NCBI RefSeq assembly: GCF_029227855.1
Contig: NZ_CP074356.1
DNA length: 64,000 nucleotides
DNA from: Escherichia coli
Lineage (GTDB): Bacteria; Pseudomonadota; Gammaproteobacteria; Enterobacterales; Enterobacteriaceae
Strand: one strand, 5' to 3'
Each line of letters starts with the position of its first letter. Positions within the stretch are counted from its first letter, which is position 1. Made by a program: the position numbers and the translations under genes. The notes below the pieces were generated by a model that did not search any database, was not told the origin of the DNA, and worked only from the letters and a program-made list of their open reading frames with translations. This document shows, in pieces, positions 34,109 through 34,686 of the stretch.

Positions 34109-34686
34109 GAGTTCCCCGCGCCAGCGGGGATAAACCGATTTTGGTGGCGGGGGTGACTGGGGGAATACTGAGTTCCCCGCGCCAGCGGGGATAAACCGTC
34201 CGAGCGCGTAATAGCGCGCGCCCGGAAACAGAGTTCCCCGCGCCAGCGGGGATAAACCGCGGCACCAGGGCTGAAAGGCGGGGCCGCTAAAGAGTTCCCC
34301 GCGCCAGCGGGGATAAACCGGCCAGCGGCGCTGAGTACGACGACCTGATTAAGAGTTCCCCGCGCCAGCGGGGATAAACCGTCAATACAACAGCAATGCT
34401 GGAGCTGGAAAAAGAGTTCCCCGCGCCAGCGGGGATAAACCGGTACCGTTGAGCAATGGTGGGTAAATGGTGCTGAGTTCCCCGCGCCAGCGGGGATAAA
34501 CCGATTTAGATACGGCACACAGGAATGCGCTGGATGAGTTCCCCGCGCCAGCGGGGATAAACCGCATGGGAGTCCAGATTACAAATTCCAGAATGGGAGT
34601 TCCCCGCGCCAGCGGGGATAAACCGCGTTTAGCTCCGCAATGTTGGATATCACTGATGAGTTCCCCGCACCAGCGGGAATAAACCA
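34109..34686 (+). CRISPR. CRISPR array (K-12 CRISPR II / 2.3 equivalent): 10 x 29-bp repeats GAGTTCCCCGCGCCAGCGGGGATAAACCG, 9 x 32-bp spacers, period 61; last repeat degenerate
   Basis: Repeats start at 34109, 34170, 34231, 34292, 34353, 34414, 34475, 34536, 34597, 34658; counted directly. Confidence 0.95.

Follow-up and report, generated by a model that had tools for sequence, protein, structure and literature searches.

The DNA analysed here, a window of 64,000 nt from Escherichia coli, carries CRISPR arrays whose spacers raise two questions: from which elements they were taken, and whether they record immunity at work. It was in this textbook E. coli system that CRISPR was first noticed. 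In type I-E systems Cas1-Cas2 excise 33-nt pieces of invading DNA beside an AWG motif and add them to an array at its leader end; transcription proceeds from the leaders, Cas6e cuts the transcript into crRNAs, and Cascade carrying a crRNA finds matching, motif-flanked DNA, which Cas3 destroys. The type I-E operons of E. coli are usually silenced by H-NS. A first-pass annotation of the window had left the origins of its spacers open; likely donors can now be named for nine of 20.

Repeat finding and a regex scan located three arrays, with 20 spacers in total, at the locus.

34020-34108, + strand: leader of array A (leader 2.3), AT-rich, from sequence inspection
34109-34686, + strand: array A (CRISPR2.3), queE-proximal, 10 repeats and 9 spacers (A1-A9)
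35189-35278, + strand: array C (CRISPR2.2), a mini-array of two degenerate repeats with no leader
35189-35217 and 35250-35278, + strand: the degenerate repeats of array C
35218-35249, + strand: spacer C1, 32 bp, the single spacer of array C
60293-60386, + strand: leader of array B (leader 2.1), AT-rich
60387-61025, + strand: array B (CRISPR2.1), adjoining cas2, 11 repeats and 10 spacers (B1-B10)

The nineteen spacers in two arrays counted by the first-pass annotation were all recovered (nine in A, ten in B), including its two examples at 34138-34169 and 60416-60447; array C, which is conserved in other E. coli and brings the count to 20, had been overlooked. Every one of A1-A9 and B1-B10 is exactly 32 bp long, in agreement with the uniform length first reported. 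The terminal spacer of array A had been suspected of measuring 33 bp, but A9 (34626-34657) has 32 bp once the degenerate terminal repeat is kept in register. By the 28-nt duplicon convention the spacers count as 33 nt, the last G of the preceding repeat being derived from donor DNA (PMC3737337).

The two large arrays contain 21 repeats, and the mini-array adds 2. Array A is built of 29-nt repeats, GAGTTCCCCGCGCCAGCGGGGATAAACCG, with a period of exactly 61 bp, and its tenth repeat is degenerate (GAGTTCCCCGCACCAGCGGGAATAAACCA, 34658-34686). Array B has type-A repeats, GTGTTCCCCGCGCCAGCGGGGATAAACCG, of which the first ten begin GTGTTCCCC; the eleventh is strongly degenerate (GAGTTCCCCGCCCCTGCGGTAGAACTCCC) and begins GAGTT. 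A motif in the array A leader, TGTTTCTGTTAAGTTGGTAGATTGT, is common to the array B leader, and 34040-34064 is 84% identical to 60318-60342. Since arrays A and B each have an exact 61-bp period, a leader on the 5′ side and a degenerate last repeat, their orientation is fixed, and A1 and B1 are the newest spacers. Repeats, spacers, leaders and degenerate distal repeats are all of the type I-E kind.

The neighbourhood runs queE, array A, mini-array, ygcE, cysJIH, cas3-cse1-cse2-cas7-cas5-cas6e-cas1-cas2, array B, iap, with gene names backed by the RefSeq annotation of near-identical E. coli regions.

33099-33770: queE
35324-36802, minus strand: ygcE
51730-60290, + strand: intact type I-E cas operon, non-K12 variant
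51730-54360, + strand: cas3
54526-56088, + strand: cse1
56085-56621, + strand: cse2
56636-57691, + strand: cas7
57702-58448, + strand: cas5
about 58430-59080, + strand: cas6e
59077-60000, + strand: cas1
59997-60290, + strand: cas2
61046-62083, minus strand: iap

All eight cas ORFs are uninterrupted and stand in the type I-E order. This operon order, together with the repeats, spacers and leader, shows that the type I-E assignment made on first reading was correct. In the counterpart region of strain JNEC-KY178 (99.4% identical) the RefSeq annotation names cas3 and casA. Cas1 matches E. coli Cas1 structures (E = 7e-176) and Cse1 matches CasA/Cse1 structures, yet the gene set is distinct from that of K-12: Cas1 is identical to K-12 Cas1 at 259 of 304 residues (85%), and Cse1 is so distant from K-12 CasA that only about 300 residues align (E = 1e-15).

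Judged from its sequence, the locus is E. coli CRISPR2.3/2.2/2.1 with the non-K12 'type A repeat / O157:H7-like' cas variant; the array names follow Diez-Villasenor et al. (PMC3737337). Type A repeats, defined as …GGGGAACAC and reading GTGTTCCCC… on the strand given here, accompany leader-A and the non-K12 'cas-EO' (O157:H7-type) gene set (PMC3737337), and CRISPR2.1 carries repeats of this type. The arrays occupy the sites described for cas-EO strains (iap-cas2 for CRISPR2.1, queE(ygcF)-ygcE for 2.3/2.2) and share with them the type-A repeats (GTGTT...) of the cas-adjacent array, the 61-bp period, leaders beside CRISPR2.1 and 2.3 only, a flanking motif in which ATG exceeds AAG, and a Cse1 far from that of K-12 (PMC3737337). 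In the features compared there is no difference in kind from that system; spacer content alone differs. The K-12 I-E system (cas-EK, CRISPR I/II) is alike in gene order, repeat family, spacer length and mechanism, but differs in its Cas1, in a Cse1 barely alignable with the present one, in having type T rather than type A cas-adjacent repeats, and in using AAG almost exclusively in acquisition (PMC3737337), whereas ATG is the commonest upstream motif here.

The origin of the spacers was investigated by searching them, concatenated, against INPHARED phages, PLSDB plasmids and complete E. coli genomes (n=5,426). Exact scans of IMG/VR were run for eight spacers (a 30-nt core of A1, and A4, A5, A6, B1, B2, B3 and B7), with one further scan of JGI metagenomes (A1 core) and one of GTDB genomes, and target genes were classified by PHROG and Pfam. 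By chance, a site with at most one mismatch is expected 3e-7 times per spacer in 28 Gb, and one with at most five mismatches 0.013 times in the phage set and 0.041 times in the plasmid set, so weak matches require independent support. No spacer matched an INPHARED phage better than E = 2, and near-exact protospacers were absent from that set. PLSDB gave only a homologue of the B8 target, mislabelled chromosomes and one plasmid with a captured array; the last was rejected as a protospacer, the plasmid carrying a captured cas-CRISPR-iap segment.

The largest group of matches lies in a single prophage family. E. coli STEC384 and STEC379 carry a prophage of ~44 kb at the ttcA (Rac) site (NZ_CP091029.1, about 2,638,000-2,681,858) that combines lambda-like early genes with a myovirus-type tail, and five spacers map to this STEC384-type family.

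34199-34230, + strand: spacer A2, 32/32, ATG upstream, to NZ_CP091029.1 2668098-2668129, minus strand
60416-60447, + strand: spacer B1, newest in array B, 31/32, mismatch at position 1, to STEC384 prophage 2672997-2673028
60477-60508, + strand: spacer B2, 32/32, AAG upstream, to a Gp157-family gene of prophage IMGVR_UViG_2713896897_000016
60599-60630, + strand: spacer B4, 31/32, mismatch at position 11, ATG upstream, to STEC384 prophage 2671748-2671779
60660-60691, + strand: spacer B5, 31/32, mismatch at position 3, ATG upstream, to STEC384 prophage 2644431-2644462

In the STEC384 prophage the target of A2 is a gene of unknown function (phrog_5215), that of B1 a YdaT/CII-like gene with CCG upstream, that of B4 a lambda-P-type replication (helicase-loader) gene and that of B5 a baseplate-hub gene. 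No exact match to B1 was found in IMG/VR. The STEC384 prophage itself has a second B2 site in its Gp157 gene (2679341-2679372); this one matches at 26/32, is likewise preceded by AAG, and has all six differences at synonymous third codon positions. Among the 5,426 genomes the protospacers of A2, B1, B4 and B5 occur in the two STEC strains only (blastn, E ≤ 5). Scanning the prophage for B3, B7 and A1 while ignoring third codon positions, in all three phases, found nothing, and B6 was absent from its integrase.

On this prophage B1, B2, B4 and B5 lie on one strand (B1 and B4 just 1.25 kb apart) and A2, from the other array, lies on the opposite one. Five spacers on one prophage family, with the four from array B on one strand, would be compatible with type I-E primed adaptation, although four on one strand would arise by chance about one time in eight, the sample is small, and A2 departs in both strand and array. 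The strand pattern is accordingly weak evidence for priming.

Four further spacers trace to other elements.

34260-34291, + strand: spacer A3, 27/32, AAG upstream, to tail gene D of phage vB_EcoM-720R5
34382-34413, + strand: spacer A5, 32/32, ATG upstream, to a tail-fibre gene of IMGVR_UViG_3300030310_000017
60721-60752, + strand: spacer B6, 31/32, mismatch at position 3, ATA upstream, to an integrase pseudogene near narP
60843-60874, + strand: spacer B8, 27/32, to a plasmid type IV coupling-protein gene adjoining mobC

All five differences between A3 and vB_EcoM-720R5 are synonymous and at third codon positions. A3 also matches the adjacent tail gene D of IMGVR_UViG_3300030310_000017 (25/32, AAG upstream), again with synonymous third-position mismatches throughout, 0.6 kb from the A5 site on the same contig. 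The likely source of these two older spacers is a phage whose tail module is of the P2 type. The 31/32 site of B6 is a degraded, chromosomal copy present in ~53 E. coli genomes; a second site, 27/32 with ATG upstream and all differences synonymous, lies in an intact prophage integrase 1.5 kb from the pseudogene. B8 matches at 27/32 in Enterobacter/E. coli plasmids and at 25/32 in common E. coli plasmids, all differences being synonymous and the encoded peptide, AGKPFVLIDLN, identical each time. By PHROG and Pfam the traced target genes are those of phages and plasmids: lambda P, baseplate hub, Gp157, CII/YdaT-like, tail fibre, tail protein D, integrase and a TrwB/TraG-type coupling protein.

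Could these matches be chance similarities, leaving the origins of the spacers unidentifiable? The 27/32 matches have BLAST E-values of 0.6-8, and the expectations for sites with at most five mismatches, given above, point the same way. For six spacers at 31-32/32, however, the expectation is below 1e-6 each, which refutes chance for these. The weak matches (A3, B8, the second site of B6 and the STEC384 site of B2, at 26-27/32) mismatch at third codon positions only, which has a probability of ~0.004 for five mismatches; their peptides are identical, an AWG motif stands upstream, and the weak A3 match lies close to the exact A5 match on one contig. The probability left to chance is negligible.

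The first-pass annotation had proposed a check for an AAG or ATG PAM, and the motif is indeed present beside the traced protospacers: in eight of the nine spacers with a located protospacer, ATG or AAG stands upstream of at least one match. ATG is the commoner, standing at A2, A5, B4 and B5 and at homologous sites of B6 (in the intact integrase) and of B8 (in Pantoea and Erwinia), and AAG accompanies A3 and B2. The exceptions are CCG at the only known protospacer of B1, ATA at the near-exact copy of B6, and ACG at the closest homologues of B8, those in Enterobacter/E. coli plasmids; the variable base of the B8 triplet is a third codon position. The base at -1 is G in all located protospacer copies other than the B6 pseudogene. 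In natural type-A arrays the flanking motif CAT exceeds CTT (PMC3737337), and since CAT and CTT are ATG and AAG on the spacer-sense strand, the pattern seen here fits the published type-A bias. The seed mismatches (positions 1 and 3) and non-consensus motifs seen among B1, B5 and B6 could reflect escape or mere divergence from the true donors.

The B6 match also suggests a different role for the spacers, in which they match resident prophages or prophage remnants and serve not in defence but in autoimmunity, the control of prophages or the regulation of genes. The 31/32 site is in a pseudogene fixed in ~53 E. coli genomes, and all traced phage donors are temperate and could be resident. Against this, even with 9 mismatches allowed, the 64-kb window contains no second site for any spacer. 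In JNEC-KY178, the closest complete genome, a megablast of the 20 spacers found no exact or near-exact place outside the arrays, and A4-A8 gave a single place (blastn). The nine lineage-specific spacers gave three places in that genome (blastn), the third of which is read as putatively array B split in two. The B6 remnant itself combines a seed mismatch with a non-permissive ATA upstream, and the narP-proL region of JNEC-KY178 is without the B6 target. On the evidence of the window and of JNEC-KY178, self-targeting is very improbable. JNEC-KY178 was also considered as a carrier of the B6 integrase remnant and was rejected on the same narP-proL region.

The remaining spacers gave no donor in the collections named.

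34138-34169, + strand: spacer A1, newest in array A, no donor in the collections searched
34321-34352, + strand: spacer A4, donor not found
34443-34474, + strand: spacer A6, donor not found (including the exact IMG/VR scan)
34504-34535, + strand: spacer A7, donor not found (INPHARED, PLSDB, complete E. coli genomes)
34565-34596, + strand: spacer A8, donor not found (INPHARED, PLSDB, complete E. coli genomes)
34626-34657, + strand: spacer A9, oldest ('anchor') of array A, donor not found (INPHARED, PLSDB, complete E. coli genomes)
60538-60569, + strand: spacer B3, donor not found (also exact IMG/VR and STEC384 prophage)
60782-60813, + strand: spacer B7, donor not found (also exact IMG/VR and STEC384 prophage)
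60904-60935, + strand: spacer B9, old, donor not found (INPHARED, PLSDB, complete E. coli genomes)
60965-60996, + strand: spacer B10, old, donor not found (INPHARED, PLSDB, complete E. coli genomes)

Ten spacers (A4, A6-A9, B3, B7, B9, B10 and C1) had no match in the collections searched; A4 had no exact match in IMG/VR and occurs in E. coli genomes inside CRISPR arrays only. A1 is a separate case. Its 30-nt core had no exact match in IMG/VR, and the JGI metagenome scan gave CRISPR arrays only. Strain 55989, O104:H4 and many others carry a spacer, TATTCCCCCAGTCACCCCCGCCACCAAAATCA, that is the A1 site on the opposite strand with a 2-nt offset. Together the two spacers rebuild a 36-nt sequence, 5′-TG-ATTTTGG…GAATA-CT-3′, in which each would be preceded by the last two bases of AWG (xTG for A1). 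An identical A1 lies in a different array on a gut-metagenome contig. The A1 site was thus sampled on at least two, and probably three, independent occasions.

The distribution of the spacers among relatives bears on when they were acquired. Of the 5,426 complete E. coli genomes, JNEC-KY178 (NZ_AP045174.1), a clinical isolate from Japan, is alone in carrying A1-A9, C1 and B1-B9, and the window is 99.4-99.9% identical to it over 41 kb. The two are distinct genomes, for in JNEC-KY178 an additional spacer separates A8 from A9; the window therefore shows internal spacer loss. B1-B7 occur in no other complete genome (n=5,426), and A1 and A2 recur in a few other arrays. A4-A8 are found in 140 E. coli genomes, exclusively inside CRISPR arrays, with A3 in a subset of these; B8 is found in ~150 genomes and B9 in ~290. 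A9, C1 and B10 are far more widespread, A9 and C1 being common to distantly related E. coli strains (A9, for example, in 50579417), and ~4,050 genomes hold at least one of the 20 spacers. Four plasmid places were reported for B8/B9 among E. coli genomes.

These distributions admit an account in which the arrays are fossils: long silent, with a spacer set that came by vertical descent and whole-array recombination and is uninformative about recent phage exposure. E. coli arrays track phylogeny rather than phage pressure, which, with H-NS repression, counts for this account. A3-A9 and B8-B10 are common to many other strains, unrelated arrays contain A1 and A2 as well, and comparison of the window with JNEC-KY178 reveals internal spacer loss and no gain. 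Other features argue for later uptake. B1-B7 are confined to one other genome, and the cas genes are undisrupted. Extant prophages contain sites matching the leader-proximal A2, B1, B2, B4 and B5 at 31-32/32; the older A3 and B8 match at 27/32 with synonymous differences only, at the protein-coding level. Such a gradient from young to old is what ordered uptake in the relatively recent past would be expected to leave. In array B, repeats 1-4 alone have AAATCG where the others have AAACCG. Each new repeat is copied from the one next to the leader, so the variant must have arisen in the repeat before B4, and B3, B2 and B1 were added later, singly, a record of stepwise additions. Long silence is thus possible, if on the unlikely side. 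The earlier suggestion of active or recently active adaptation holds in the evolutionary sense only, on the evidence of eight intact cas ORFs, the rarity of B1-B7, the match gradient and the repeat variant marking three acquisitions; this support does not extend to present-day activity.

Taken together, the sequence comparisons make it very probable that the locus comprises three chromosomal type I-E arrays of the non-K12 variant, with traced spacers that come, beside the motif and in the orientation expected, from temperate phages and, in one case, a conjugative plasmid. Only prophages and uncultivated contigs are known as donors, and to extend a 'mostly temperate phage' origin to the whole set is to extrapolate from roughly half of it. 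The lineage would repeatedly have encountered prophages related to that of STEC384, and its spacers would have been taken up in several steps, possibly aided by priming. A stronger version, put forward tentatively and itself unlikely, is a natural adaptation burst, possibly primed, against one lambdoid prophage family, with five spacers spread over the two arrays that have leaders (B1, the newest next to the cas genes, among them) and with the changes at B1, B5 and B6 as phage escape.

As immune memories of an E. coli type I-E system the spacers are ordinary, and the biology that they illustrate is already known. The value of following them up is descriptive: 20 spacers in three arrays of a non-K12 variant, about half of them traced. 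E. coli CRISPR-Cas is usually regarded as silent and immunologically inert, and the burst, if true, would be field evidence of a recent arms race between it and temperate phages. The cluster of five spacers on a single rare prophage family and the independent sampling of the A1 site, on both strands and in different lineages, are small, concrete data points that bear on whether E. coli CRISPR-Cas works as immunity in nature.

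Relative to JNEC-KY178, the closest complete genome (NZ_AP045174.1), array A (CRISPR2.3) of the window is the product of an internal loss of one repeat-spacer unit. JNEC-KY178 carries an additional spacer, CGCCAGTCTGAGGTTTTCCGGTCATACATCGT, between A8 and the oldest spacer, A9 (positions 20489-20520 of the comparison locus L009, NZ_AP045174.1), and the window counterpart of this site is at 34597-34625. In array B (CRISPR2.1), repeats 1-4 (window 60387-60598) have the 3′ end AAATCG rather than AAACCG, which marks B3, B2 and B1 as spacers taken up once the repeat then at the head of the array had undergone a point mutation. 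The first-pass annotation had counted spacers in two arrays; both stand, and a third, CRISPR2.2, which is kept in other E. coli strains, was omitted from that count.

Window 35189-35278: CRISPR2.2 mini-array without leader, two degenerate repeats and one spacer
Window 35218-35249: CRISPR2.2 spacer, 32 bp

Elsewhere in the window, a 300-nt direct repeat (18981-19280 and 20345-20644; 70% identity, 1364-bp spacing) reflects the paralogy of gudX and gudD, and a 26-nt pair, GGACTTGTAAGCCTGATAAGACGCGT, 92% identical (43818-43843 and 50321-50346), looks like REP-type intergenic elements. A Hok/Gef-family toxin ORF lies in the cysH-cas3 gap at about 51383-51535, according to the annotation of the near-identical JNEC-KY178 region (L009 37307-37459).

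JNEC-KY178 has a P4-like satellite sited at tRNA-Pro, adjoining yejO/narP, with genes for an integrase, an Icd-like protein, a DUF927 primase, SSB, ProQ/FinO and PerC; spacer B6 has no match in this element.

L008 13500-21300 (NZ_AP045174.1, about 1718500-1726300): P4-like satellite element of JNEC-KY178

The newest spacer of array A, A1, has counterparts in other arrays. In the CRISPR2.3 array of E. coli 55989, one spacer derives from the donor site of A1, on the opposite strand and offset by 2 nt; two spacers of that array are duplicated in tandem (spacers 11-12 = 13-14).

L010 (NC_011748.1 3118142-3123172): E. coli 55989 locus with the CRISPR2.3 array

An exact copy of A1 occurs in the human gut metagenome contig OQCW01009292 (L016 137-166), within a different array whose repeats are of the GTG type and whose neighbouring spacers are unrelated, suggesting independent uptake or array recombination.

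Matches were also found on plasmids. E. coli genome searches report four matches to B8 or B9 in plasmid records, with at least 99% identity, which may be either arrays or protospacers. The IncHI2 conjugative plasmid pIOMTU792 carries a chromosomal-type cas5e-cas6e-cas1-cas2-CRISPR-iap segment, whose CRISPR has B10 as the sole spacer in common with the window.

L002 (NZ_LC542972.1 243937-249968): cas-CRISPR-iap segment of pIOMTU792

This plasmid segment represents an E. coli CRISPR-Cas locus that has been mobilised.
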